A stretch of DNA of 63,715 bases, filler included, from Candidatus Desantisbacteria bacterium CG1_02_49_89 (GTDB lineage Bacteria; Desantisbacteria; UBA1551), in NCBI GenBank assembly GCA_001871075.1. It is 5 parts of 5 records of this genome, joined end to end, with 100 filler letters (N's around TTAATTAATTAA, not from the genome) between each part and the next. Parts side by side here need not be neighbours in the genome. Positions count along the whole stretch, not along the records: positions 42,472 to 49,754 come from MNUP01000098.1; 4 more parts are not named here. One strand, 5' to 3'. The notes under the pieces were generated by a model. It did not search any database, was not told where the DNA came from, and was given only the letters and a program-made list of their open reading frames with translations. This document shows positions 12,983 to 57,107 of the stretch, piece by piece (within the stretch, counting starts at the first letter, position 1; each line of letters opens with the position of its first letter). A program made the translations under genes and the position numbers.

Positions 12983-13082
12983 NNNNNNNNNNNNNNNNNN
13001 NNNNNNNNNNNNNNNNNNNNNNNNNNTTAATTAATTAANNNNNNNNNNNNNNNNNNNNNNNNNNNNNNNNNNNNNNNNNNNN
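12983..13082. other. Assembly gap with artificial TTAATTAATTAA linker
   Basis: 100-nt N run with a central all-frame stop linker. Confidence 0.97.
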
Positions 13083-42371: not shown

Positions 42372-42471
42372 NNNNNNNNNNNNNNNNNNNNNNNNNNNNN
42401 NNNNNNNNNNNNNNNTTAATTAATTAANNNNNNNNNNNNNNNNNNNNNNNNNNNNNNNNNNNNNNNNNNNN
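42372..42471. other. Assembly gap with artificial linker
   Basis: N run with TTAATTAATTAA. Confidence 0.97.
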
Positions 42472-43347
42472 AACTACGCGCAGGTCGCCGAAGTAAGCCA
42501 ATGCTCAACCTCCTACACGGACAACGCCATTACAACAGACCTGATATACTACTGGACCGTGATGGCCAAGAATTCCTGGGATATGCTGAGCCTGATAAGC
42601 GAGGAAGTTGACAACAAAGGAAACCTGGTAATAATGTTGCCCGGTGAAACCCAGACTTACGTGATGCTTCCCAGGAATACGGTAATGCTGCTTGATTCGG
42701 CAGATTCAAAAGCAATAGGCATAACAGCGACGCGAACGGGTATCCTGCCGCCGACAGCCGGAGGCCTGGGCGCCATAGTAGGCATATTTGACTTTATACC
42801 CTACAGGATCTCTGACGGGGCACAGGTCGGGTTCAACGCTTCTCCCGAAACGCTTGTTATAGCCCTGCATTACGCGGCGCCGGGCGGACTTCTGGAGAAC
42901 ACAGGTATTTCTCTTGCTGACGCGGCAAAATACATAAGCATCGCTTACTGGAACGGGATACAGTGGACCAGGATCAACGGGACTGTAGACGCGGCAAACC
43001 AGAACATAACCGCCATTGTCACACACCTGAGCAGGTTCGCGATAACTGCAACGGATGTTACCTCGTTCAGGGTGCTGGCGGCTGAACCCAACCCGTTCAC
43101 TCCGCTCAACCCCCCGTATGATAAAGTAACGGTCTCCTTCGCTAATCCTAACAAATACGAGGTTATTTTCAGCATTTACGACCTTACCGGCACCCTGTTC
43201 TTCACGAAAACATATACGGCGGGCGAAATAAAGATCGAGTGGGACGGCAAAGACAGGAACGGGAATGTCGGCGAGGACGGCATTTACATTTACCAGTTGC
43301 AGTGCGGCACGCAGTCCTATACCGGCACGATGATCCTGGCCAAATAA
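42472..43347 (+). CDS. 5'-truncated secreted protein with Fn3-like remnant and C-terminal FlgD-Ig / T9SS-CTD-like sorting domain
   Basis: Frame open to the gap (SYTD..YYWTV); VTHLSRFAI; PNPFTP..IYDLTG..WDGKD..G..GIYIY.L..G.MILAK. Confidence 0.82.
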   Translation, partial: NYAQVAEVSQCSTSYTDNAITTDLIYYWTVMAKNSWDMLSLISEEVDNKGNLVIMLPGETQTYVMLPRNTVMLLDSADSKAIGITATRTGILPPTAGGLGAIVGIFDFIPYRISDGAQVGFNASPETLVIALHYAAPGGLLENTGISLADAAKYISIAYWNGIQWTRINGTVDAANQNITAIVTHLSRFAITATDVTSFRVLAAEPNPFTPLNPPYDKVTVSFANPNKYEVIFSIYDLTGTLFFTKTYTAGEIKIEWDGKDRNGNVGEDGIYIYQLQCGTQSYTGTMILAK

Positions 43348-43408
43348 CGTGTTACGTGTTACGTGTTACGGGAAATACGGGATATAAAGATCAAGAAAAA
43401 GAGGGATA

Positions 43409-44389
43409 ATGTTCAATAAATATCTCAACAAAATATTCGTGGGCATCTTTATTCTTGCGTTACACGTGACACCTTACACGTTACACGTCTGTTATGCGTC
43501 ATATGAGGACATCGGCTGCGGCGCAAGGCCCCTGGGCATCGGGAACGCGTTCTGCGCCATAGCTGACGACGCCAATGCATTCCTGTATAACCCCGCCGGG
43601 CTTCCGCAGCTTAAAAAACTGCAGGTGAGCGCAATGTACGCCAATCTTTATCCGCTATTAAGCGACAGGTCCATAATCAGCAACAATTATCTTGCGGTAG
43701 CATACCCGATGAAACAGGCGGCTATAGGGGTGGCGTGGTTCAGCCTCGGCGCGGTTTCCGACCCGGAAAGATCAAAAGCGCAATACCAGGAAAATACGTA
43801 CCTGCTGACCTACGCAAGGCAGATGGAACGCTTCTACATAGGGTTCTCGGCCAGGTTCCACTCGAAAGAATACGGCGTGAACGACTGGACAGCCGTAAAC
43901 CCCGTGTTCACAAGGAAGAAAACCGCGTTCGGCGTGGGCATTGACGCCGCGATGCTTTACAGGACCGAGGACAACCTGTTCAAGTTCGGCCTGCTGGTCG
44001 CCGACATAAACCAGCCTGACCTCGGCATAGCGTCCCCAAGCCCGGTCCCGATGTCTGCCAGGGCTGGTATCGCCTATGAATTCGAGCCGGTCTGGGTTTT
44101 CAACGACCTGACAGGCGCGGTGGATGTTACCTACCGGGATAATGACGTAAAAGCCCAGGGCGGCATAGAAGGATGGTTCATTGAAAGGACTGTAGCGGTC
44201 AGGATAGGGGGCGGGTTCGGCAGCAATTCCTACGGATTAATATCAATGGGGGCAAGCTACCAGCTTACCGAGGAACAATACAATAATGATTTCAGGATCG
44301 ATTACGCCTTCTCCTGCCCGTTAGGAGGCCTGCAGCCGACAGGCGGGACGCACAGGATATCGCTCACAATGGGATTTGATGTGAAATAA
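43409..44389 (+). CDS. PorV/PorP-SprF-like (UPF0164) outer-membrane beta-barrel
   Basis: Signal peptide; GARPLGIGNAFCAIADDANAFLYNPAGL; C-terminal IDYAF..THRISL..GF. Confidence 0.82.
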   Translation: MFNKYLNKIFVGIFILALHVTPYTLHVCYASYEDIGCGARPLGIGNAFCAIADDANAFLYNPAGLPQLKKLQVSAMYANLYPLLSDRSIISNNYLAVAYPMKQAAIGVAWFSLGAVSDPERSKAQYQENTYLLTYARQMERFYIGFSARFHSKEYGVNDWTAVNPVFTRKKTAFGVGIDAAMLYRTEDNLFKFGLLVADINQPDLGIASPSPVPMSARAGIAYEFEPVWVFNDLTGAVDVTYRDNDVKAQGGIEGWFIERTVAVRIGGGFGSNSYGLISMGASYQLTEEQYNNDFRIDYAFSCPLGGLQPTGGTHRISLTMGFDVK

Positions 44390-44604
44390 CTTGTAGCTCA
44401 TGGCTCATGGCTTTTTGGCTTAAAAAACAAAATTAAGAGCTCAAAATTAAGTTCAGTATTATCAATAAATCTTGAAGCATTAACTTTTACATTTTGCATT
44501 TTAACTTTTGACTTGTATCTATTTCCCGGATCCTTCACTTTTGCATTTTACACTTTGCACTTTGCATTTTGACTTGTATTTTGTAACCAACATAGGAGTA
44601 TTGC

Positions 44605-45774
44605 ATGGCTGAACCTATTCTATCCAAATTTAAACTGCCTCCGACTAAACTTTCAAGGCCTATAATAATAATTATTATATGCGTGGCTGTTGCTGTTTTT
44701 GGCTTTATTTTCATCAGGAACGTGAGCCGGCTCGCGTCAAACAAGATCACGCAGCAGATGAAATACAGCGAAACAAACAAAGGCATCCAGATGCCTGACG
44801 TCCCGGGGTACCAGAAACTGGCGATAGAAAAAGAAATGGAAAGAAGGGTCCAGAATATAATGGACGAGATCGTCGGGCCCCAGAAATCCATCGTCAGGGT
44901 GACAGTTGACCTCACGCCTATGATCCAGGACAAGGAAGAGGTCCACACCCCAAGGCCCATATCTACTACGAAAGAGGAAAAATACACGGTTTCCTCCGAA
45001 AGAGGAACTGAAGACAAAGCCGCGGAGGAACCTGCGGGAACCGCTGCCAAGAAAGAAAACCTGCCGGGAGTCTTTGATGACGTGGAAGACCAGATAAGAG
45101 CAAGGGGCGGGGAGGAATATTTTCTGTATCCGGGTTATCCGTCCGTGGGGGACCTTGAAGCAAAACCCATGGGCCGCGCTCCGATGGGAAGTAACCAGGA
45201 AAAATCAGGAACGAAATCAGTAAGAGAAGCGTCATCCACCGACTATGCCCTGGATAAGAAAATAACGGAAAGGACCACGCCGGCGGGAACAATAGACAGG
45301 ATAAGCGTGCTGGCGCTTGTTGACGTGAACTGGATCAAGACCTTCACCGGAAGGACGATCCAGAGGAAAAGGTCAGAAAAGGAATTAGACCAGATAAAAA
45401 CACTGATAACAGACGCGATCGGGTTCAGCGAGGACAGGGGGGACACGATAATAATGCAGAACGTCGCCTTCCTGGGAGCAAGGCCCAAGGTCGAAATGAT
45501 GGAAAGGATCACGACCGGGATAACCGTCCTGATACTGCTGCCGCTTATTTATTTTATCGTGAAAACAACGCTCACATTCCTGAAGCGCAGGGCTGAAATA
45601 AGGCAGGAAATGATCGAGAAAATGCAACAGGAAGAAGAAGCGGAGAAAGAAAGGAAAATAAAGGAAGAAAAGGAACTGAGGGAAAGGATACAGATGCACC
45701 AGGAGCAGGTGTTCACCATCGGCAGGACGCATCCCGACATTTGCGCGCGTATTATTCGAAACTGGCTTACTTAA
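44605..45774 (+). CDS. fliF: Short FliF-like MS-ring protein (TM1-RBM3/beta-collar-TM2-FliG-binding tail; RBM1/2 absent)
   Basis: EKEMERRVQNIMDEIVG..SIVRVTVDL; TDYALDK..PAGTIDRISVLALVD; ELDQIKTLI.DAIGFSEDRGDTI..NVAF; PDICARIIRNWL. Confidence 0.82.
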   Translation: MAEPILSKFKLPPTKLSRPIIIIIICVAVAVFGFIFIRNVSRLASNKITQQMKYSETNKGIQMPDVPGYQKLAIEKEMERRVQNIMDEIVGPQKSIVRVTVDLTPMIQDKEEVHTPRPISTTKEEKYTVSSERGTEDKAAEEPAGTAAKKENLPGVFDDVEDQIRARGGEEYFLYPGYPSVGDLEAKPMGRAPMGSNQEKSGTKSVREASSTDYALDKKITERTTPAGTIDRISVLALVDVNWIKTFTGRTIQRKRSEKELDQIKTLITDAIGFSEDRGDTIIMQNVAFLGARPKVEMMERITTGITVLILLPLIYFIVKTTLTFLKRRAEIRQEMIEKMQQEEEAEKERKIKEEKELRERIQMHQEQVFTIGRTHPDICARIIRNWLT

Positions 45775-45779
45775 AAAAC

Positions 45780-45877
45780 AATTATGAGTTATGAATGATG
45801 AATTATGAATTAAAGGCATGGAATTTTATCTAAATTTAACTTCCTTGCAGTTGATTCATAACTCATAATTCATAATT
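45780..45877. repeat. ATTATGA/TCATAAT heptamer-armed element, copy 4
   Basis: Same arms and core as other copies. Confidence 0.88.
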
Positions 45878-45910
45878 TTATTTGTATTTAAAAGGAAGGA
45901 GCAAAAGCAA

Positions 45911-46168
45911 ATGACTGGATTTACATTACTTATATTAGTATCTATTGGAGCAATAGCCGGGATCACTTATCTGGTCATAAGAATGAACGCGTCTTCCTCT
46001 GAAAAAAAGGCGGTGCGCGCCGCCGAAAAGAGAAAGACTGACACCGAGGAAAGGGAAAAGCAGGAAAAAATGCGCATTGAAATGCAGATGCACCAGGAAG
46101 AAGCGCTCGCGATGGCGAAGAACAATCCTGAGCTGGTCGCGCGGGTAGTGCGCAACTGGCTTACTTGA
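45911..46168 (+). CDS. Mini-FliF: single TM + coiled coil + FliG-binding tail
   Basis: AGGAG RBS; QMHQE..NPELVARVVRNWLT is paralogous to the FliF tail QMHQE..HPDICARIIRNWLT. Confidence 0.8.
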   Translation: MTGFTLLILVSIGAIAGITYLVIRMNASSSEKKAVRAAEKRKTDTEEREKQEKMRIEMQMHQEEALAMAKNNPELVARVVRNWLT

Positions 46169-46177
46169 AAAATATAT

Positions 46178-46274
46178 TTATGAGTTATGAATGATGAATT
46201 ATGAATTAACCGCAAGGATGTTTATTTAAATAGAAATTCCTTCACTCATAACTCATAATTCATAACTCATAATT
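46178..46274. repeat. ATTATGA/TCATAAT heptamer-armed element, copy 5
   Basis: Left arm near-identical to copy 4. Confidence 0.88.
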
Positions 46275-46291
46275 AAGGAGAGGGAGGAACA

Positions 46292-47296
46292 ATGGCGGAA
46301 GAACAGGAAGTTAAAACTTTGACGGCGGAAACGCTGTCGGGAGGCCAGAAAGCGGCGATACTTCTTATAGCGCTTGGGCCTGAAATATCCACGGAAGTCT
46401 ATAAGCACATGGGCGAGGCGCAGATACGCCAGCTCACAAGGGAAATAGCGGGGCTCAGGCAGGTCACCAAGGATATAAGGGAAGCGGTATTCGAGGAATT
46501 CTACCAGAAAGCCATGGGCCTTGACTACATAAAGGGAAGCTCTGAGGACGCGCTGGACTTCCTCAAACGGACCTTCGGGGACGAGAAAGCCGCCGAGTTC
46601 ATGGAAGAGGTAAAAACAGCCGAGGATGGCGGCCCGGGGCTTTTTGATTTCCTGAAAAACCTCGGAACTGATTTCCTTTACGAAGAACACCCGCAGGTCG
46701 CGGCCCTGGTGTTGTCGCACATGACACCCGAATGGGTCTCCTCAATAGTCTCAGCCGCGCCGCCGGCGTTCCAGGCAGACGTGCCCGAAAGAATGGCGAC
46801 GATGGGCGAGGTAATGCCTGATGTGATAAAGGAAATAAGGGACCTGCTGCGCAAAAAGATGTCTTCCGCGACAAAAAAGGAAGCTACGTCCAAGAACAGG
46901 CTCAGTTTCCTCGCGAAGATGGTGGAAGGCGACGGCGGTGACAGGGTCCTGGAAGGCTTAAGGCAAAAAGACCCGAAGCTTGCGGAAGAAGTAAGGGGGC
47001 TGGTATTCCTTTTTGAGGACGTGGTTACCATTGAAGATGAATCTCTGCAGCTCGCGCTGGGAAAAGTGGGGGTAGAGGACCTTGTTATGGCGCTCAAGGG
47101 CGCGACGAAGGAAATAAAGGACAAGATATTCAAGAACGTCTCCGGAAGGCTGCGTTCCATACTGAACGAAGAGCTCGAATACAAGAAGGAATCCCGCAAG
47201 GCGGATGTGGACAAGGCGCAGCGGAAGCTCGTCAACATACTGCGCGAGCTGGACAAGTCCGGAGATATCATACTTAAAAAAACAGAAACAGTCTGA
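46292..47296 (+). CDS. fliG: Flagellar motor switch/rotor protein FliG
   Basis: LSGGQKAAILLIALG, EHPQ, PKLAEEVR..VFLFEDV, LVMALKGA, NVSGR..ILNEELE torque helix, VDKAQR. Confidence 0.92.
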   Translation: MAEEQEVKTLTAETLSGGQKAAILLIALGPEISTEVYKHMGEAQIRQLTREIAGLRQVTKDIREAVFEEFYQKAMGLDYIKGSSEDALDFLKRTFGDEKAAEFMEEVKTAEDGGPGLFDFLKNLGTDFLYEEHPQVAALVLSHMTPEWVSSIVSAAPPAFQADVPERMATMGEVMPDVIKEIRDLLRKKMSSATKKEATSKNRLSFLAKMVEGDGGDRVLEGLRQKDPKLAEEVRGLVFLFEDVVTIEDESLQLALGKVGVEDLVMALKGATKEIKDKIFKNVSGRLRSILNEELEYKKESRKADVDKAQRKLVNILRELDKSGDIILKKTETV

Positions 47297-47391
47297 TAAT
47301 AGTAACAAGTAACAAGTGTCAAGTATCAAGTTTGAAACTGGCCACTGGAAACTGGCCACTGGAAACTGTAGTTCAAGGAAGGAGTGAAGCC

Positions 47392-47964
47392 ATGGCTGAA
47401 TTGACAAATGAGCAGAAGGGCGTCCTTAAGGATCTTCTTACAAACCTTGGCGGAAGAACAAGCGAGTCTTTCTCGAAGGTCGCTAAAAGAAGGGTAGAGG
47501 TTAAATACACCAAGTGGGAAATAGAGGATTACCAAAAATTCATCGAATACCTCCCGCACTTCACCGCGATAGGGATATTCGGGACCGAACTGTCCAAGGA
47601 CCAGATACTTATTGACGCGCATCCGTCTTTGTCCTACTACCTGCTGGACAAGCTGCTGGGCGGGAAAGGGGAAGCCGGGATTATCGAAGGAAAGAAAATG
47701 ACAGAGATAGAAAGGGTGCTTTTCCAGGATTTTGTTTTCGCGGGACTTACGCAATCCTGGGAAGAAGGCTGGGAAAACATCACGGGGCTGCAGCTCAAAA
47801 TGAGCCTTATAAGGGTTGAGAGCGACCCGTTCCTTACCAGAAGGATGGACGGCAAATTCGTGCACGCCTTTATGGAATGCCAGTTCGAAAAAGGCAAGGA
47901 AGAAATAAACGTCTGCATCCCGCACAAAGTCGCGGAGATGATCGGCGCCGCCCCGCAAGCATAA
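47392..47964 (+). CDS. fliM: FliM middle (CheC-like) domain only
   Basis: YQKFIEYLP, LLDKLLGGKG (GGxG), MTEIER, INVCIP; no N-terminal LSQxEID peptide and no C-terminal SPOA domain; start after GGAG. Confidence 0.78.
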   Translation: MAELTNEQKGVLKDLLTNLGGRTSESFSKVAKRRVEVKYTKWEIEDYQKFIEYLPHFTAIGIFGTELSKDQILIDAHPSLSYYLLDKLLGGKGEAGIIEGKKMTEIERVLFQDFVFAGLTQSWEEGWENITGLQLKMSLIRVESDPFLTRRMDGKFVHAFMECQFEKGKEEINVCIPHKVAEMIGAAPQA

Positions 47965-48121
47965 AATCCGTCGAGCGTCGTAGGTCGTACGTAAATACCG
48001 TCATACGTCGTAGGTCGTACGTTTTAAGATTATGTGTATGACGCATGACGAATGACGAATAATCACTGTAATCATCTTTAAAAAATCACTGTAATCGTCT
48101 TTAAGGAAAAGGGGAGTAAAT

Positions 48122-49252
48122 ATGCGCGTTAAATTGACGAAGTCAATGATACTGGCCATAATGATCATGCTGACCGCCGGCAATGCGGTATACGGGAGCT
48201 TCAACCGCACGACAGGCCTGATAAACATCCCCACGGCCGGAACAACGCTGAAAGAAGGCGATTTTGAAAAAGGCCTTCTGGTGAATTTCTCCTCCGAAAT
48301 ATTCACGATGGATATGAAACTCAACTACGGCATCAACGACAGGTGCGAAATAGGCATATCCATATTTGACGCGTTCGGCTCAGCGGCAACCAAGGCGAAT
48401 TTCCACTGGCAGGTACTCGGCGGAAAAAAGATACAGATGGCCCTGGGTATCCAGAACATACCTCTTGCCGGCGATATCAACCTTGTTCCTAATTCGCTTT
48501 CCCCGTATGCGGTTTTTACCCTTTATGTGATCCCGAGTATGTCGCTCAATGTGGGGATGGGAGGCGGCAGGTTCAGAAGCGAAACCCTTGCTCCGGGGTT
48601 CGGCGGGTTTTTCGCAGGCATAGAGTTCCTTATCAAGTCCACGAAACTCGGATTTGAATACGACGGCAACTGGCTTAACGTCGGAATTAAATACAACCTT
48701 ACGCCAAACATAATACTCGAAGGCGCGGGGATACGCCTAAATGATACCGCGAAAGGCCTTGCTGCGACCGTGGGCGTCAGCATCATAGATTTCCCCAAGA
48801 GGCAGTCCGCGGAAATATCGGAAGGCGTGATCAGCAAAGACGAGATAACAAAAATAATAAACGACCAGATAATGAAAATAATGCCTATAGAGGAAAAACC
48901 TGCGGGTCCGGGCATGGGCGAAACCCCCGGAGGAAGGCTTACCGGGATCAAAGAAGACCAGGCAACTATGGACAACCTTGCGTTCGAGCACGCCCAGGCG
49001 GGCACGCGCTATTACTTCCAGGGTGAATACGCCAAGGCGGTTGACGAGTTCAAAATGGCGATCGCGATGAATGAAAATATTTTCATATTCCACTGCCAGC
49101 TCGGTTCCGTGTATTACAAACTCGGGATGATCGACAGCGCGGTCTCGGAATGGAACAGGGCGCTTGAGATCAACCCCAACGACAAGAATCTCAGCGAATT
49201 CCTGTTAAAAGTGCTTGAGGGCAAAATGGAAGCGGACCTCGCCCCGCGTTAG
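48122..49252 (+). CDS. YjbH-like outer-membrane beta-barrel with C-terminal TPR domain
   Basis: Signal peptide; TTGLINIPTA..L; FFAGIEF, EYDG..LNVG; TPR G..Y..G.Y..A...F..A and LG.VY...G. Confidence 0.7.
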   Translation: MRVKLTKSMILAIMIMLTAGNAVYGSFNRTTGLINIPTAGTTLKEGDFEKGLLVNFSSEIFTMDMKLNYGINDRCEIGISIFDAFGSAATKANFHWQVLGGKKIQMALGIQNIPLAGDINLVPNSLSPYAVFTLYVIPSMSLNVGMGGGRFRSETLAPGFGGFFAGIEFLIKSTKLGFEYDGNWLNVGIKYNLTPNIILEGAGIRLNDTAKGLAATVGVSIIDFPKRQSAEISEGVISKDEITKIINDQIMKIMPIEEKPAGPGMGETPGGRLTGIKEDQATMDNLAFEHAQAGTRYYFQGEYAKAVDEFKMAIAMNENIFIFHCQLGSVYYKLGMIDSAVSEWNRALEINPNDKNLSEFLLKVLEGKMEADLAPR

Positions 49253-49357
49253 CATTCGTAACGTCGTGCGTCGTTCTTCGTGCATCGTCAAAACTGTTGC
49301 GTGTTGCCGTGTTTAGCGTGTTACGTGTTAAATCTTAAAAATTTTGAAAATTTTTTG

Positions 49358-49410
49358 GGAGTAGGGGCTTTAGCCCCGTAATTATATCGTGAGCCTAAAG
49401 GCTCTACTCC
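49358..49410. repeat. GTAG REPIN
   Basis: ggagtaggggctttagcccc ... gagcctaaaggctctactcc. Confidence 0.8.
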
Positions 49411-49477
49411 AAAAGACTCTATTCCAGTTTTAAAATCCGTGAAAATCCGTGGCAATCCGTGGTTAAATAGGAATGAT

Positions 49478-49687
49478 ATGATAAAAGTGACGAAATTCGA
49501 CGGGAATACAATTGTTATAAACGCGGATATGATAGAAACGGTGGAATGCACCCCCGACACCGTTATTTCCCTGACCACAAAAAATAAGATACTGGTCAAG
49601 GAATCAATTGATGAAGTGATTGCAAAGGTCCTCGCGTATAAACAGCAGGTGCACAAGTTCCCGGAACAGAGCGGATCTAATAATTAA
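49478..49687 (+). CDS. flbD: FlbD/SwrD family protein
   Basis: MIKVTKFDG..IVINADMIETVECTPDTVISLT...ILVKESIDEVI..V..YK. Confidence 0.92.
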   Translation: MIKVTKFDGNTIVINADMIETVECTPDTVISLTTKNKILVKESIDEVIAKVLAYKQQVHKFPEQSGSNN

Positions 49688-49754
49688 ATTCAGTGACAAG
49701 TAACAAGTGACAAGTAACAAGTTAAAAACTGGACACTGGATACTGGACACTGGA

Positions 49755-49854
49755 NNNNNNNNNNNNNNNNNNNNNNNNNNNNNNNNNNNNNNNNNNNNTT
49801 AATTAATTAANNNNNNNNNNNNNNNNNNNNNNNNNNNNNNNNNNNNNNNNNNNN
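49755..49854. other. Assembly gap with artificial linker
   Basis: N run with TTAATTAATTAA. Confidence 0.97.
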
Positions 49855-49856
49855 AG

Positions 49857-50582
49857 ACCAGCCACATAGACAGCATGACAGACCCCCTCCTGGACGTGGA
49901 CATAAACTGCAGGGGCAACATAATCTTCCTTGAAGCATGCCGCAGGCTAAATCCGTCAGTAAAAATAATTTATGCCGGAACAAGGGGCCAGTACGGGAGG
50001 GTGAAATACGTTCCCGTTGACGAAGAGCATCCCCTGAACCCGACCGACGTTTACGGCGTCAACAAGACCGCGGGCGAAAAATACCATTTCCTTTACGCCA
50101 ATTCGTACGGGCTGAAGGTCTGCAGCCTGCGCGTTAACAACTCATACGGCCCCAGGCACCAGATGAAGCACGGCAAATACGGCATCCTGAACTGGTTCAT
50201 AAGGCTGGCTATGGAGGGCGGCATCATCAAGGTCTTCGGCGACGGCACCCAGCTGAGGGATTTCAACTACGTGGACGATGTCACGTCGGCTTTCATCGCG
50301 GCAGGGGCATCGGAAAGGTCCGAAGGGAAGATCTACAACCTTGGCAGCGGCGTGCCTGTCAGGTTCATAGAGCTGGTGGAGAAGATCCTTAAAACCGTTG
50401 GCTCCGGCAGGATGGAAAAGGTTCCCTGGCCCAAGGAAAGAAAAGACATAGAGGCCGGGGATTACGTCGCAAGCTATGAAAAAATAGAAAAGGAGCTGGG
50501 GTGGAAGCCCGCGACAGGCCTGGACGAAGGCCTGCGCAGAACAGTGGAATACTACAGAAAATACAGGGATAAATACTGGTAA
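49857..50582 (+). CDS. NAD-dependent epimerase/dehydratase (5'-truncated by the gap)
   Basis: YGVNK (YxxxK), YGPR, GDGTQLRDFNYVDD, LGWKP. Confidence 0.9.
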   Translation, partial: TSHIDSMTDPLLDVDINCRGNIIFLEACRRLNPSVKIIYAGTRGQYGRVKYVPVDEEHPLNPTDVYGVNKTAGEKYHFLYANSYGLKVCSLRVNNSYGPRHQMKHGKYGILNWFIRLAMEGGIIKVFGDGTQLRDFNYVDDVTSAFIAAGASERSEGKIYNLGSGVPVRFIELVEKILKTVGSGRMEKVPWPKERKDIEAGDYVASYEKIEKELGWKPATGLDEGLRRTVEYYRKYRDKYW

Positions 50583-50660
50583 GGCAAAATGCCTTACCTG
50601 ATTACACAGATCAGGGTGCAGATTACACAGATTAAAACTAAAGAAGTTCAAGATGCCAAA

Positions 50661-51365
50661 ATGAAACCTGAATTTTCATTGGTTATCCCTTTTTATAACG
50701 AGGAGGAAAACGCGGAAAGGGTATGCCTTGAGATCGTTAACGAATTCGACAGCCGCGAGCTGGACTACGAGCTTATCGCGGTCAATAACGGCTGCGCGGA
50801 CAGGACCCCGGGCATCCTGCGCAGGCTTTCGGAAAAGCATTCCCGGATTAAAGTGGTGGACGTCGAAAAGAACCAGGGCTACGGTTTCGGCGTGATACAG
50901 GGTTTTCAGCACGCGCGGGGCGGTTACGTGGGTTACTCTACTGGGGACGGGCAGATCTCCGCTTCGGATGTCTTCGGGGTTTTCAGCAGGATGAAGGAAC
51001 AGGGCCTTGATTACGCCCAGGGTAAAAGGGTGCGCAAAGACACCTTCCTGCGCAGGCTCAACACAAAGGTCTTCAACTTCGTGTTCCACGCGTGTTTCCC
51101 GGCAAATGTCTATGACATAGGAAGCAATCCGAAAATAATGAAAAGGGGCATCTTCGAAAGGATCTCGCCGGTTTCCAAGGACTGGTTCATAGACGGCGAG
51201 ATAATCCTGAAATCCTATCTTTTAAAAGGCAGGATGGACGAATTCCCGGTGGCTTTCAGGAAAAGGGAGAAGGGCAGGTCCCACATAAAACTTTCTTCCG
51301 TTTTTGAAATGCTGAAAAATATAGCCAGGTGGAAACTTAGAACTCTTTTCACAAAAGTAGTCTAA
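50661..51365 (+). CDS. Glycosyltransferase family 2
   Basis: SLVIPFYNEE, VNNGCADRT, NQGYG. Confidence 0.9.
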   Translation: MKPEFSLVIPFYNEEENAERVCLEIVNEFDSRELDYELIAVNNGCADRTPGILRRLSEKHSRIKVVDVEKNQGYGFGVIQGFQHARGGYVGYSTGDGQISASDVFGVFSRMKEQGLDYAQGKRVRKDTFLRRLNTKVFNFVFHACFPANVYDIGSNPKIMKRGIFERISPVSKDWFIDGEIILKSYLLKGRMDEFPVAFRKREKGRSHIKLSSVFEMLKNIARWKLRTLFTKVV

Positions 51366-51610
51366 GAAACAGGTCAAGGCTCAAAGGTCAAAACTCCCGC
51401 CTCAACGGCGGGTCGCCGAAGTGGCGACAAAGGTCAAAACGAAAACTTAAGATTTCCACGAAAGCACGAAATAAAATTAGACACAGATTAACACAGATTA
51501 TCGCAGTTTAAACTTTGTAAACTATATAAACTCTGTAAACTTTGTAAACTGTTTTAAACCCATGACTCATGACAAATGACTAATGACTGTTTTTCAAGAG
51601 CGAGGTTATT

Positions 51611-52333
51611 TTGGGTTCTGTTAATCTTTCAGTGATAATCCCGGTTTACAACGAAAGCGACAGGATTTTGCCGGCTCTGGATAAAGTGGTCCCCTACCTG
51701 TCAGGAAAAGGGATCACCTGGGAGGTTATCATCGTAGATGACGGCAGCACGGATAACACCGCGCAGCTTGTCGAAAAATACGCGGCAGGCAGCAGCGGAG
51801 TGAAACTGCTTGCGAACAGCCGCAACCGCGGCAAGGGCTGCGTCGTGCGCCAGGGCGTGCTCGCGTCAAGCGGCGAAAGGGTGCTGTTCACGGACGTGGA
51901 CCTGTCCGCGCCGATAGAGGAAGCGGAAAAGCTTCTGTCCTGCCTTGATGAAGGCTATGACGTGGCGATCGGGTCCAGGGCCCTGAAAGAGTCGAACGCC
52001 AGCACAACATTTCTGAGGAAGTTCATAGGGCTGACGTTCAATTTCATAGTGCGCAAAATGCTCCTTCCCGGTATAGTGGACACGCAGTGCGGCTTCAAAT
52101 GCTTTAAGGGTGACGTTGCAAGGGATCTTTTCAGCAGGCAGAAAACAGAAGGTTTCGGTTTTGACGTGGAAATACTGTGCCTCGCGGACATGGGCGGTTA
52201 CAGGATGAAGCAGGTCCCCATAAACTGGTTTCAGTCGCCCTCAAGCAGGGTCAATATATTCAGGGATTCCATACGCATGTTTTTTGAGATCCTGGAGATC
52301 CGTGGAAGGCTTAAAGATAGGAGGAAAGCATGA
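51611..52333 (+). CDS. GT2, polyprenyl-phosphate glycosyltransferase (DPG synthase-like)
   Basis: IIPVYNE, VDDGSTD, NRGKG, FTDVD, DTQCGFK, FDVEIL. Confidence 0.92.
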   Translation: MGSVNLSVIIPVYNESDRILPALDKVVPYLSGKGITWEVIIVDDGSTDNTAQLVEKYAAGSSGVKLLANSRNRGKGCVVRQGVLASSGERVLFTDVDLSAPIEEAEKLLSCLDEGYDVAIGSRALKESNASTTFLRKFIGLTFNFIVRKMLLPGIVDTQCGFKCFKGDVARDLFSRQKTEGFGFDVEILCLADMGGYRMKQVPINWFQSPSSRVNIFRDSIRMFFEILEIRGRLKDRRKA

Positions 52334-53334
52334 AAGCTCGCGTTTCAAAGAATTTTTGGAGGGATAAGAACGTTCTTGTTACCGGAAGCCTCGGGTTCCT
52401 CAGTTCCTGGCTCATAATCGATCTCCTGGAAAGAGGGGCAGGCGTGACCGGGCTTAACGACGACTACAACCCCCGTTCTCTCCTGCGCCTGAAAGGGCTT
52501 GAAAAGAAAATATGCTTTATACAGGGTTCAATAACCGATTACCCGGCCGTTGAAAGGATCTTCACCCAGTATGACATTCAGGTCTGCTTCCACCTTGCCG
52601 CGCAGACCATAGAGGGCGCGTGCCGCCGTTCGCCCCTTACGGCGTTCGACACGAACATCAAAGGCACCTGGAACATGCTTGAGGCCGCAAGGAACAGTCG
52701 CCAGAATCTGGAGTCGATCGTCATCGCGTCAAGCGACAAGGCATACGGCGAACAGAAAGAGCTTCCTTACCGCGAGGACCAGGAACTGCTGGGTCGTTTT
52801 CCCTACGACGCCTCCAAGGTGTGCGACGAAGTGATCGCGCAGTCTTATTCCCGCACGTTCGGCCTGCCTGTGGGCATAACGCGGTGCGCGAATATTTACG
52901 GGGGCGGAGATTTCCACTGGTCCAGGATAGTGCCGGGAACGATCAGGTCCGTCCTGCGCAATGAAAACCCGGTCATACGGAGCGACGGCACCCCTGTCAG
53001 GGATTATTTGTACGCCGAGGACGCAGCGGACGCCTACATTACGCTTGCGGAAGCAGTGGCAGGCGGCAAGGCGAAAGGGGAGTCGTTCAATTTTTCCGCT
53101 GAGCACCACAAGAGCGTGCTGGAGATCGTTAAGATGATAATCGCGGTCTCGGGAAAGAAGAACATAAGACCGGATGTTCAGGGTAAGGGCAAGCCGTACC
53201 AGGAGATCGACCGCCAGATCCTTTCCGCGGCAAAGGCCGGTAAGGTCCTGGGCTGGAAGGCCGGGTATTCGCTTGAAGAAGGGCTGAAAAAAACCTTTGA
53301 TTGGTACGTGAAATACGCAGCGGAGTACCTGTGA
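52330..53334 (+). CDS. NDP-sugar 4,6-dehydratase/epimerase (RfbG-like)
   Basis: FW..KNVLVTG..GF, SSDKAYG, PYDASK, NIYGGGD. Confidence 0.88.
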   Translation: MKARVSKNFWRDKNVLVTGSLGFLSSWLIIDLLERGAGVTGLNDDYNPRSLLRLKGLEKKICFIQGSITDYPAVERIFTQYDIQVCFHLAAQTIEGACRRSPLTAFDTNIKGTWNMLEAARNSRQNLESIVIASSDKAYGEQKELPYREDQELLGRFPYDASKVCDEVIAQSYSRTFGLPVGITRCANIYGGGDFHWSRIVPGTIRSVLRNENPVIRSDGTPVRDYLYAEDAADAYITLAEAVAGGKAKGESFNFSAEHHKSVLEIVKMIIAVSGKKNIRPDVQGKGKPYQEIDRQILSAAKAGKVLGWKAGYSLEEGLKKTFDWYVKYAAEYL

Positions 53335-54728
53335 AAATAATGCTTGTTTTCCCTCCCATACTCGGCGAAGAAAGATACGGCAAGCTGGCAGGAGCCGGCT
53401 CGTACCTGCCGCCACTTGGGCTGCTTTACCTTGCGGCCGTTGTCCGAGATAAGCACGAAGTGAAAATAATCGACGGGGGAGTGCTGGATATCACCGTTGA
53501 TGACGTGGTCGAAGAGGTCAGGCGCTGGAAACCCGGTATGGTGGGCGTTACGGCGTTTACACCCACCGTTTACCGCGCGTCCGCGATATGCAAGGCTGTA
53601 AAGGAATTTGACAAAGGCATAATCACCGTGATGGGAGGCCCGCATCCGTCCGCGCTTCCCGAAGAATCCATGAAGGACGCCAGCGTTGACGTTGTTGTGG
53701 TCGGCGAAGGCGAAAGGATCCTGAAAGAGCTGGTCGAAGCCCTTGAAAAGGGCGGCGATCTTTCGGCTGTCAGGGGAATATTATACAGGAAGGACGGCAA
53801 AGTGGTCTCAAACCCTTTGCAGGAAAGGATCCCGCAGCTTGACGAACTGCCTTTTCCGGCAAGGGACATGGTGGACATGGGGGTTTACAGGCCCTCGGTG
53901 CTGCACTACAAGAATTTTCCGGCGTTCTCAGTGATGTGCGGCAGGGGCTGCCCGCACAGGTGCACGTTCTGTTCGTGCGCGAAGGTGTTCCGCGGAAGGG
54001 TCACTATGAGGAGCCCGGAGAACGTGATCGGGGAAATAAAATTCCTCATCGATAAATACGGCGCCAGGGAGATAATGGTCTGGGACGACACATTCGGCAT
54101 TTTCAAGGACTGGACCGTGAAATTCTGCGATATGATCAAGCCGCTCAATGTCACCTGGTCCGCGTGGATGAGGGCTGACCTTGCAGACCCGGATATCCTC
54201 AAAAAGATGGCCGGAAGCGGGTGCTGGCATATTTCATACGGGGTTGAGTCAGGCAACCAGAAGGTGCTGGACACGATAAAGAAGGGATTCACGGTTGAGC
54301 AGGTCAGGAAGGCGTTCAAATGGACCCACGAAGCGGGCATGGAAGCGCGCGGCACGTTCATCCTGGGCCTGCCCAACGAAACCTGGGACACGATGATGGA
54401 CACCATCAATATAGCCATAGAAATAAAAGCGGACTACGCCCAGTTCCAGCTCCTGACCCCTTACCCGGGCACCGAGTTGTGGGACACGATAAACCAGTAC
54501 GGGGAATTCACCACCAACGACCTTTCCAAATACACCATATGGTTCCCGGTATTCGTGCCCAAAGGGCTTACGAAGGAAAGGCTTGAGCAGGCGCACAAGC
54601 TTGCATACAGGAAATTCTATTTCCGCGCCGGCTACATCTGGCAGAATCTTTCGAAAATAAGGTCCTGGGACGACATAAAGCGCGATTTCATAGGGCTGAG
54701 CGCGCTTTTTAAATTCAACAGGGACTGA
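53331..54728 (+). CDS. B12-binding radical SAM protein
   Basis: PPLGLLYLAA, GGPHPS, GEGE, RGCPHRCTFC, GVESG, PYPGT. Confidence 0.93.
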   Translation: MKIMLVFPPILGEERYGKLAGAGSYLPPLGLLYLAAVVRDKHEVKIIDGGVLDITVDDVVEEVRRWKPGMVGVTAFTPTVYRASAICKAVKEFDKGIITVMGGPHPSALPEESMKDASVDVVVVGEGERILKELVEALEKGGDLSAVRGILYRKDGKVVSNPLQERIPQLDELPFPARDMVDMGVYRPSVLHYKNFPAFSVMCGRGCPHRCTFCSCAKVFRGRVTMRSPENVIGEIKFLIDKYGAREIMVWDDTFGIFKDWTVKFCDMIKPLNVTWSAWMRADLADPDILKKMAGSGCWHISYGVESGNQKVLDTIKKGFTVEQVRKAFKWTHEAGMEARGTFILGLPNETWDTMMDTINIAIEIKADYAQFQLLTPYPGTELWDTINQYGEFTTNDLSKYTIWFPVFVPKGLTKERLEQAHKLAYRKFYFRAGYIWQNLSKIRSWDDIKRDFIGLSALFKFNRD

Positions 54729-54740
54729 GGGAAATAAAAA

Positions 54741-55652
54741 ATGGCAGGTTCGCCGCTGGGCAGGATCTTCAAGCTGCTTTCCGGGTACGGGGACTCAAAA
54801 AGCACGGGTTTCCGCCCCCTGAAAGCCATGCAGAAGCGTTTCTACCAGTGGGCGCTGATGCATCCCGTGTTCTCATTCAAGGCCTTCCACCTCTTTATTT
54901 CGCCTTTTATAAAAGAAACGGCAATGGTCCAGGGCCACAGGATGCACCTTGACAAAGGTGACAGCCTCGGCCTTTCAGTGTTCGGGGTTTTCGAGCCCTT
55001 CATGACAAAGATCATCGCCGGAGAGATAAAGGAAGGGGACACGGTTGTGGACGTGGGCGCGAGCATCGGCTATTACACGCTGACGTTTGCCAGGCTTGTC
55101 GGCGAAAAAGGAAAGGTTTACGCTTTTGAGCCCGCTCCGGACATATTCGCGCTCCTGGAGAAGAACGTTAAGGAGAACGGTTATAAAAACGTTATCCTGA
55201 ACAATAAGGCGGTGTCGGACAAGACCGGTAAAGCCAGGCTGTACCTGTGCGATTACAACAACATGGCGCATACGTTGAGCAGGACCAGGGAAGGCGCGGG
55301 ATCAGTGGAGGTCGAAACAGTAAGGCTGGATGATTATTTCAGGGACCGCGGCGGAAAGATCGATTTTGTGAAGATCGACGTCGAAGGCGCTGAGTGCGCC
55401 GCCGTGAGGGGAATGGAACAGGTCCTGCGCGCCAGCCGGTCAATAAAACTGGCAACGGAATACCATCCCAAATGGCTTACTTCTTTCGGCTCAAGCGGAA
55501 AAGAATACCTGGAGCTGATCTCAAGCCTGGGGTTCGGCATCAGCGACATAAACGAAGAAACGGAGCAGGTTGAGCCTTCGGATGCGGATAAAATACTGAA
55601 AAAATATTCTCCAGAGAAAAGGACATGGACCAATCTGTTGTGCGTGAAATAA
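54741..55652 (+). CDS. FkbM-family methyltransferase
   Basis: VDVGASIGYY, YAFEP, KIDVEGAE. Confidence 0.93.
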   Translation: MAGSPLGRIFKLLSGYGDSKSTGFRPLKAMQKRFYQWALMHPVFSFKAFHLFISPFIKETAMVQGHRMHLDKGDSLGLSVFGVFEPFMTKIIAGEIKEGDTVVDVGASIGYYTLTFARLVGEKGKVYAFEPAPDIFALLEKNVKENGYKNVILNNKAVSDKTGKARLYLCDYNNMAHTLSRTREGAGSVEVETVRLDDYFRDRGGKIDFVKIDVEGAECAAVRGMEQVLRASRSIKLATEYHPKWLTSFGSSGKEYLELISSLGFGISDINEETEQVEPSDADKILKKYSPEKRTWTNLLCVK

Positions 55653-55671
55653 ACATAAGGCAGGACCGGGC

Positions 55672-57007
55672 ATGAAACAAAATCAAATGATATTCCTGAT
55701 CGTCGCCCTTTCGCTCCTGCTTGGCCTGCCGGGGATCCGGTGGGGGCTTCCGAGCGCTGAAAGGAACGGCCTGTATTTTTCCTCTGAATCCGGGATCAGG
55801 AGATCCCTTGAGGGTGTGGACAGCGAAGCGGTCACGGTTTCGATGTCCGAAAAAAAAGAAGGTCTTTCGGGTTCGGCTTTCGCGCCGATCAAAAGCTACC
55901 ATCCGGACGAATCCAATTTCATAAAGGCTGTCAGCAACATGAAGCCGAAGAAGCTCGATTTCAACCCGCACTACCTTTATTACGGCACGCTGTATGTTTA
56001 TTCTTTTGCCGCCGCGCTCGCCGCGGGCGCTGTGTTCAGGGTCATAAAGCCCACAACCGACATACTTTTTTATTTCCTGAATCCCGGCGAGATCGCGAAG
56101 TTCTATGTCGCCGGCAGGCTCGTTTCCGTTTTATTCGCCGCGCTCCTGGTTTTTATCGTATACCGCGCCTCAAGGAAGCTGTACGGCGAGAACGCGGGGC
56201 TTATTGCCGCGCTTTTCACCGCGCTTTCCCCGGCCCTCGTGGTGAATTCGCATTTCCTTTCGGTGGACGTCACGATGTCCTTTTTTGTCTGTCTTACGAT
56301 GCTTTTCGCCGCGAAGATATTCGATTCCCGGGACGTGAAATGGTACGTCCTGGCCGGAGTATGCGCGGGGCTGGCGGCGCAGTCCAAATACAATGCCGCC
56401 GCGGTCATACTGGCGGTGCCTGCTGCCGGACTGCTGGGCACATACAGGAAAAAGACGGATATTCTTTTATGCTGGTTTGAAAAAAAGGCGCTTCTGAGCT
56501 ACGCGTGCGCGCTGGCTGTTTTTTTCCTGTTCCTGTCGCCGTTCATTTTCACCGCTGCCCCGGAATTCACGCACAAATTCTTGGCCGCGATGTTCAGGAC
56601 GGGGCCGAAGCTGGGGAACGCTGCCAGCAATTTCCTGTTTTTCATAAAAGCCGTATATCACGGAATGGGCCTTCCGCTTTCCCTGCTTGCCGCCGCGGGG
56701 ATAATCATGGCTGTTATAAAAAGGGAAAAAGCCGATATATTCCTTATTTTCTGGATAGCCCTCAACACGCTGATACTGATAACAATGTCCCCTGTTGGCG
56801 ACAGGCACATGAGGTACCTGCTCATAATACTGCCGTCGCTTGCGATCCTTGCCGCCAGGTTTATGGCGGTTGTATTCGCCATCCGCCCGGCAGGCAGGGT
56901 ACTCCTGCTTCTTGCCTGCGTTCCGACCCTGCTTTTCAGCGCGGGTTATGACAGGGTTTTTATGCAGGAAAACACCCGGACCTCGGCCGGGAAATGGATC
57001 GCGCAGA
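55672..57007 (+). CDS. ArnT/PMT_2 (GT-C) membrane glycosyltransferase, 3'-truncated by the gap
   Basis: GIRWGLP, HPDE, GRLVS, GLA..SKY, RYL..LP; multiple TM segments. Confidence 0.85.
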
Positions 57008-57107
57008 NNNNNNNNNNNNNNNNNNNNNNNNNNNNNNNNNNNNNNNNNNNNTTAATTAATTAANNNNNNNNNNNNNNNNNNNNNNNNNNNNNNNNNNNNN
57101 NNNNNNN
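57008..57107. other. Assembly gap with artificial linker
   Basis: N run with TTAATTAATTAA. Confidence 0.97.

Follow-up and report, generated by a model that had tools for sequence, protein, structure and literature searches.

The flagellar motor and the type III export apparatus almost always occur together. Here we describe a locus of Candidatus Desantisbacteria bacterium CG1_02_49_89 (GCA_001871075.1) in which the torque-generating parts probably persist on their own. The window, a stretch of 63,715 nucleotides of DNA with filler included, contains the 7,283-bp contig MNUP01000098.1 (hereafter C8; positions 42472-49754), and this contig encodes a short FliF. The protein retains the first transmembrane helix (TM1), ring-building motif 3 (RBM3) with its beta-collar, the second transmembrane helix (TM2) and the FliG-binding tail, and lacks RBM1 and RBM2.

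SpoIIIAG reportedly has one N-terminal transmembrane helix, neither a TM2 nor a FliG-binding tail, and is encoded in a sporulation operon. It resembles the short FliF in its RBM3-type ring domain with a beta insert and in the absence of RBM1/2 (PDB 5WC3), whereas the short FliF has two transmembrane helices and a FliG tail and is encoded in the vicinity of FliG and MotAB. With canonical FliF (Salmonella; PDB 6SCN, 6SD1, 8T8P and others), which forms rings of about 33-34 subunits, it shares TM1, RBM3 with the beta-collar insert, TM2 and the FliG-binding tail. It differs in lacking RBM1 and RBM2 (PF01514), in falling below the TIGR00206 equivalog cut-off (54.8 versus 129.75 bits) and in carrying a family-invariant motif at the collar tip. 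The part of the MS ring that contains RBM1/2 is said, in the available text of two reports, to house the export complex (PMC11739650; 10.1101/2024.07.30.605930).

The one domain-reduced FliF that we know to have been published, ~330 aa long, is found in the FliF-FliG fusion of Chlamydiaceae, bacteria that are not thought to be flagellated and that have few flagellar genes, FlhA and an injectisome among their equipment (Bergeron 2016, PMC4768692). As far as the available portion of that article describes it, the reduction there is the reverse of ours: here only RBM3 is kept, FliG is a separate protein and a full stator set is present. Another article points out that non-motile genomes can contain rotor proteins and raises the question of what purpose half a motor would serve; its accessible sections describe no such locus (PMC12199754). 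In the full-text literature, subscription journals and supplements aside, we found no published RBM3-only FliF and no FliF-FliG-MotAB system without export genes. The GldLM/PorLM motor of Bacteroidota, which the accessible text of PMC12635249 presents together with a PorKN/GldKN track, SprF/PorP barrels and the SprB adhesin, may offer an analogy at the level of the whole locus. In both cases an ion-driven inner-membrane motor, PorP/SprF-type barrels and a giant adhesin with a C-terminal sorting domain (CTD) would be encoded together, but the motor described here would be built from flagellar FliF, FliG, FliM and MotAB, not from GldLM.

A FliF with RBM3 as its only ring-building motif

The genes that would make up the motor are listed below, together with the gene for an Ig/TPR protein that follows them. 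The last line refers to L003, a metagenome contig of the same organism that continues the cluster beyond the end of C8; the same continuation is found in L004, a metagenome contig of a second lineage.

44605..45774, + strand: short FliF, 389 aa, intact open reading frame (ORF); TM1, RBM3 with beta-collar, TM2 and FliG-binding tail, without RBM1/RBM2
45911..46168, + strand: mini-FliF, single-pass membrane protein of 85 aa ending in ...RVVRNWLT; copy of FliF TM2, charged coil and FliG-binding tail
46292..47296, + strand: FliG, full length with N, M and C domains (PF14842, PF14841, PF01706)
47392..47964, + strand: FliM, middle domain only, 190 aa (PF02154, E 6.8e-20)
49478..49687, + strand: FlbD, 69 aa (PF06289, E 1.5e-25)
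L003 8137-12115: MotA, MotB, FliL and an immunoglobulin-like (Ig)/TPR protein, following FlbD

The preliminary description of this DNA, made from the sequence alone, had proposed a 389-aa FliF in which TM1 is joined by a short linker to RBM3, TM2 and the FliG-binding tail. The ORF, Pfam, TIGR00206 and a structural model all bear this out, and the motifs it quoted lie at aa 75-103 (EKEMERRVQ...VRVTVDL) and aa 271-280 (AIGFSEDRGD). The gene starts with ATG, 7 nt downstream of AGGAG. TM1 corresponds to a hydrophobic run at aa 19-37 of the translation. As anticipated, YscJ_FliF_C (PF08345) matches aa 87-289 with an E-value of 9.8e-24 (84.9 bits; cut-off 23.8), and YscJ_FliF (PF01514) does not match the protein even at E<=1. 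Residues 71-388 align with positions 241-551 of the 555 positions of TIGR00206, and positions 68-376 of the family profile align with Salmonella FliF 241-555. Since both alignments begin at position 241, ~170 residues, corresponding to RBM1 and RBM2, are absent between TM1 and RBM3. A further alignment (A2) was discarded for sizing the deletion, as it misplaced TM1.

An AlphaFold2 model built from a 65-row alignment (mean pLDDT 77.3) predicts a long TM1 helix (18-59), an RBM3 helix (67-90) and collar strands (95-131), with no fold in aa 37-66. A low-confidence insert at the collar tip (aa 134-201) is followed by collar and RBM3 strands (205-254), a helix (258-272) and a strand (281-286), and TM2 and the tail are modelled as one long helix (295-388). 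In a Foldseek search of the PDB, ranks 1-18 belong without exception to RBM3/S-ring chains of FliF (E-values from 4e-10 to 1e-6), and SpoIIIAG, at rank 19 (E 7e-3), is the nearest non-FliF fold.

The preliminary description had also read the domain loss as clean, and this held. RBM1/2 is found neither in aa 37-70 nor upstream of the gene, and PF01514, a family matched in 4 of 14 control genomes, returned nothing when searched against all six frames of the entire genome. The gene upstream of fliF encodes an outer-membrane barrel and the 215-bp spacer in front of fliF is repeat DNA, so there is no frameshifted RBM1/2 piece upstream. Single Logan contigs (X10 record 1 and X12 record 17) span 43900-45809 with 0 differences, and a contig of X11 covers 44221-45809; none of these three runs is flagged as the source. 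L003 aligns with C8 along all 7,283 bases and shows 40 mismatches, of which 37 fall within the first 93 bases and none from fliF to flbD. The short FliF is not an assembly artefact and very probably not a decaying gene. The runs that carry the locus are groundwater or aquifer metagenomes.

A homologue search returned 13 proteins, comprising seven short clusters and six canonical FliFs (520-603 aa, E 9e-9 to 2e-4). The seven short proteins are 373-389 aa long and match PF08345 only; all six clusters other than our own (49-62% identical to it) carry the same deletion, in line with the expectation that homologues would share it. Their last 28 residues are nearly invariant (IQ.HQEQVF.IG..HPDICARIIRNWLT), and W387 is nearly invariant among 65 FliFs. 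Together with a full FliG encoded two genes downstream, these residues support the earlier proposal that the ring is still coupled to FliG, as far as sequence conservation can indicate. A second invariant element of the seven is E170-x-Y-F-x-x-P-G-Y-P179 (window 45112-45141), which stands out in the otherwise variable insert aa 134-201 as a candidate docking peptide. We conclude that the protein is a conserved and probably working FliF cut down to its S-ring/beta-collar (RBM3) module, with two membrane passes, which would assemble into a ring and hold FliG.

Torque-linked genes and missing flagellar families

The preliminary description was right about the short FliF, but it had not seen that the locus as a whole looks like a pared-down motor that includes stator genes. 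FliG scores above the TIGR00207 cut-off (261.8 versus 226.7 bits). Compared with T. maritima FliG, it retains the EHPQ motif, the (M/V)FxF hinge and, in the C-terminal helix, charged residues that we take to be the charges of the torque helix. FliM is more reduced. Comparison with L004 sets its start at a common ATG (the ORF as listed begins at TTG 47332), and the protein covers TIGR01397 positions 53-222 of 320, without the CheY-binding N-terminus and without the FliN-like C-domain; the GGKG (GGxG) segment is retained when it is aligned to solved FliM. The start of FlbD is likewise the one shared with L004, the listed ORF beginning at 49439 and the contig ending at 49754.

On L003, MotA has the MotA_N and MotA_ExbB domains and matches C. 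sporogenes MotA at E 1.3e-58. MotB has the plug, the OmpA-like domain and the transmembrane Asp, and matches the C. sporogenes stator at E 2.4e-42. Their best NCBIfam models, MotP/MotA/PomA and MotS/MotB, are all under cut-off and fix no ion type. The stator genes are missing from the metagenome-assembled genome (MAG) because C8 ends after flbD; the remainder of the cluster past this point is 4.9 kb, below the smallest contig kept in the MAG (5,184 bp). A Zorya-type locus was rejected, as PADLOC gave no ZorA and only MotB matched ZorB models. The sole MotA_ExbB match within the MAG (contig C126, 7253-9926) was likewise rejected as a stator, being part of an ExbB-ExbD pair; there, a TonB-receptor-like barrel is followed by ExbB and ExbD at the contig end.

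Between fliF and fliG lies the gene for mini-FliF. The protein matches family profile positions 286-377 (E 8.4e-10) and TIGR00206 positions 503-551 (E 2.8e-4), and it aligns with the FliF C-termini as MHQEE.LAMAKNNPELVARVVRNWLT against MHQEQVFTIGRTHPDICARIIRNWLT. It also occurs in L004 (11211-11462), these being the only 2 clusters found in a homologue search. By these alignments mini-FliF is a paralogue of the C-terminal part of FliF. It would provide a second membrane anchor for FliG and might determine stoichiometry or act as a competitor of FliF. We know of no described counterpart to such a free, membrane-anchored FliG-binding tail.

The MAG comprises 2.48 Mb in 150 contigs and is 93.5% complete with 1.8% contamination. 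Compared with a complete flagellum, it has no match for the export gate (FHIPEP/FlhA, PF00771; FliP, PF00813), the rod (Flg_bb_rod, PF00460), flagellin (Flagellin_N, PF00669) or FliN (FliMN_C, PF01052), although each family was matched in 4 of the 14 control genomes. The negative results for FlhA and FliP agree with the preliminary claim that the short ring has lost the export-gate housing. CheW gave no match either, with 8 of 14 control genomes matched. In L004, the 21-kb context holds no flagellar gene beyond the cluster.

Gene order, envelope neighbours and relatives

Twelve collinear same-strand genes are shared by L003 and L004, the FliFs of the two lineages being 62% identical. They encode, in order, a CTD adhesin, a PorV/PorP-like barrel, the short FliF, an 83-85-aa mini-FliF, FliG, FliM, a barrel-like/TPR protein, FlbD, MotA, MotB, FliL and the Ig/TPR protein. 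In L004 the genes are packed with gaps of <=49 bp and a 19-pair terminator follows right after the last one, so that the array is operon-like. Amino-acid identity between the lineages is 56-80% over the 12 genes (FliG 79%, MotA 80%). Synonymous sites are saturated, and the nonsynonymous rate (dN) is 0.14-0.36 in all 12 genes, which therefore indicates purifying selection on the whole array.

The genes for putative envelope proteins on C8 are:

42472..43347, + strand: 3' end of an Ig-domain surface protein with a C-terminal sorting domain of the type IX secretion system kind (Pfam/NCBIfam); cut by the contig start
43409..44389, + strand: outer-membrane beta-barrel of the PorP/SprF - PorV/PorQ kind, 326 aa (PF11751, 25.2 versus 22.3 bits)
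48122..49252, + strand: protein of 376 aa with an outer-membrane-barrel-like N-part and a C-terminal TPR domain (TPR families, Pfam)

The surface protein has an orthologue of 2,893 aa in L004, at the same position in L003 and L004. Its Pfam matches (FlgD_ig, CHU_C, Por_Secre_tail) are all under cut-off, and TIGR04183 Por_Secre_tail scores 23.5 against 23 bits. The barrel at 43409..44389 reaches 84.2 bits with NCBIfam PorV_fam, whose cut-off is 90. The barrel/TPR protein is lineage-specific, with four clusters at 100/57/51/49% identity. Its TPR part is the best conserved region, and its N-part resembles YjbH-type outer-membrane barrels (Atlas). Its AlphaFold2 model is poor (pLDDT 51), with 12 strands and TPR helices at 280-373. 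A complex prediction of FliF aa 60-295 with the TPR part (aa 275-376) scored 0.02 against a mark of 0.32 and was not counted either way. For the Ig/TPR protein, the 12th gene, Atlas returned nothing.

Compared with the tight array of L004, the spacers in the window's organism have been enlarged by palindromic repeats that belong to its own genome. The two spacers beside the mini-FliF gene (45775-45910 and 46169-46291) consist of palindromic repeats with ATTATGA/TCATAAT word arms, and they have matches on 52 and 55 of the genome's contigs (C8 counted among them). In four runs, contig depth rises at these spacers from ~5-12 to 90-2,600. By tblastn, the barrel gene matches 24 other contigs and the adhesin CTD 11 others, often adjacent to each other and sometimes with an OmpA-like gene after them. 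Cassettes of a CTD protein and a PorV/PorP-like barrel are seen on C28, C140, C139, C37, C36, C112, C23, C149, C132 and others. The genome-wide spacer repeats and barrel matches therefore place C8 in this genome. There are many adhesin/barrel pairs in the genome and one motor cluster. Genome searches for further components of the Bacteroidota system were of low sensitivity: SprA_N gave nothing, the controls being silent too; GldM gave nothing, and a Bacteroidetes MAG serving as positive control yielded only a 22-bit match; and the PorP_SprF search missed even the window's own barrel gene.

The window itself consists of five contigs (C6, C7, C8, C9 and C18), separated by spacers of the form N44-TTAATTAATTAA-N44 at 12983-13082, 42372-42471, 49755-49854 and 57008-57107. 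A probe of 60 bases taken from the C9 part (49855-57007) has a second exact match, in reverse, on contig C61, and part of the MAG may thus be duplicated.

In an exhaustive profile search with 2,826 proteins at E<=1e-3, P0002 (2e-192) is the sole representative at or below 1e-30, and the next best match is a canonical FliF at 5.5e-24. This gap indicates that the short-FliF family is small and isolated. A pattern search with the family alignment across genome contigs gave 75 matches, none of which was confirmed. PF08345 was matched in 31 of 61 sampled genomes, where the best matches lie mostly in open frames of ~500-660 aa; the exceptions are this gene (392-aa frame) and one cut by a contig start. 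Most "short" FliF matches of the profile search lack TM1 and begin inside RBM2, and we read them as contig-end fragments. P0112 (279 aa) and P0162 (286 aa) are metagenome proteins with TM1, RBM3, TM2 and tail. P0090 and P0153 combine the first half of PF01514 with RBM3, P0129 its second half with RBM3, and P0019 (483 aa) contains three stretches of PF08345 together with a Sel1 repeat.

P0158 is an RBM3-FliG fusion, and an orthologue lies in L007 (7850-12170), a locus of a Desulfomonilia MAG. That fusion is 556 aa long. Its neighbours are a TPR protein of 693 aa, a sigma-54 activator and an MgtE_N-like protein of 181 aa; none of the 13 ORFs scanned in L007 encodes MotAB. A scan with P0158 returned 67 loci. 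Six were inspected and L007 alone is a true fusion; L012, L022, L037, L047 and L058 were rejected as ordinary adjacent fliF and fliG genes. These fusions resemble the short FliF in having TM1, RBM3 and TM2, no PF01514, a tie to FliG and an adjacent TPR protein. They differ in joining FliF directly to the FliG M and C domains, whereas in our locus the proteins are separate and the joint between the tail and FliG-N is kept, even duplicated. From these sequences, FliF seems to have been reduced to RBM3 more than once.

A proposed rotor-stator motor with a non-flagellar output

What seems to be missing from this system is linked to export and to the axial structure, namely RBM1/2, the FliM C-domain, FliN, FlhA, FliP, the rod and flagellin, along with the CheY-binding end of FliM and CheW. 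The torque-linked parts are all retained under purifying selection. This selective pattern leads us to read the locus as a motor with a non-flagellar output. We propose, with a probability of about 65%, that it encodes a rotor-stator motor of flagellar origin that lacks the export apparatus, rod, hook, filament and FliN base and receives no chemotaxis input; its ring formation, rotation and output we infer. In this model, ions would flow through MotA/MotB, anchored to the peptidoglycan and aided by FlbD and FliL, and the stator would push on the C-domain of FliG. The FliF tail, possibly together with mini-FliF, would hold FliG, so that the FliF ring would turn in the inner membrane, with the RBM3 ring and its collar as the sole periplasmic part of the rotor. 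The collar-tip motif E-x-Y-F-x-x-P-G-Y-P would be the likely hand-over point to envelope proteins of the same gene array, the candidate partners being the two TPR proteins, the PorV/PorP-like barrel and the giant adhesin.

Several points weigh against this proposal. Ring formation and FliG binding are argued from likeness to canonical FliF, and a C-ring would have to hold together without FliN and the FliM C-domain. The stator genes come from the metagenome contig L003 and not from the MAG itself. In a MAG that is 93.5% complete, other flagellar genes could have been missed, and hook, FliI, FlhB and FliE were not searched; the negatives moreover cover the organism's own genome and not the L004 lineage, which is represented by a metagenome contig alone. 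The link of the adhesin and barrel to the motor may be incidental, since such pairs recur throughout the genome, though the pair is conserved in L004.

Rotation could be relayed to outer-membrane barrels by way of the collar-tip motif and both TPR proteins, so as to move or deploy the giant CTD adhesin. This would amount to a gliding or adhesin-conveyor system made from flagellar parts and convergent with the GldLM/SprB system of Bacteroidota, an extension of the motor proposal that we regard as doubtful in this specific form. Alternatively, the ring could be static, an RBM3 channel or scaffold like that of SpoIIIAG, with FliG, FliM and MotAB serving assembly, energy coupling or sensing, for example in the placing of CTD surface proteins. 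SpoIIIAG is indeed the nearest non-FliF fold (E 7e-3), and the locus opens with a CTD adhesin and a PorV/PorP-like barrel, members of a class of pairs that is numerous in the genome beside a single motor cluster. Unlike SpoIIIAG, however, the short FliF has kept TM2 and the invariant FliG-binding tail, and its neighbours include a stator of flagellar type as well as FlbD and FliL. In known systems these parts act by turning FliG, and a static ring is therefore an unlikely solution.

We consider it very unlikely that a normal flagellum is made and that its other genes were simply missed, being part of the 6.5% of the MAG that was not assembled or of contigs that were not binned. The MAG is fragmented into its 150 contigs and has demonstrably lost the MotAB-FliL piece after FlbD. 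However, flagellar regulons usually comprise dozens of genes, and none of the six flagellar families searched was found, nor does the L004 context add one. The proteins themselves also speak against this alternative, as FliM has no FliN-like domain, FliN is unmatched, and FliF lacks RBM1/2, the housing of the export complex according to the accessible text of PMC11739650 and 10.1101/2024.07.30.605930. The chance that we are looking at the decaying, functionless remains of a lost flagellum appears slimmer still. The sister species of the same order, the only other species genome covered for the phylum, gave no FliF match in the profile search, and the phylum may thus be losing, or have lost, its flagella. 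Yet all frames are intact, seven diverged clusters share the same boundaries, and dN stays at the values given above with saturated synonymous rates in 12 of 12 genes. Decay would also sit poorly with losses that are selective for export-linked over torque-linked parts, and with the addition of a lineage-specific mini-FliF paralogue and TPR partners.

If the motor proposal is correct, the locus would represent a new use of the flagellar rotor and a minimal natural rotor for structural study. It would also be a test of the FliF domains required for ring assembly and for coupling to FliG, and mini-FliF could bear on how rotor stoichiometry is set.

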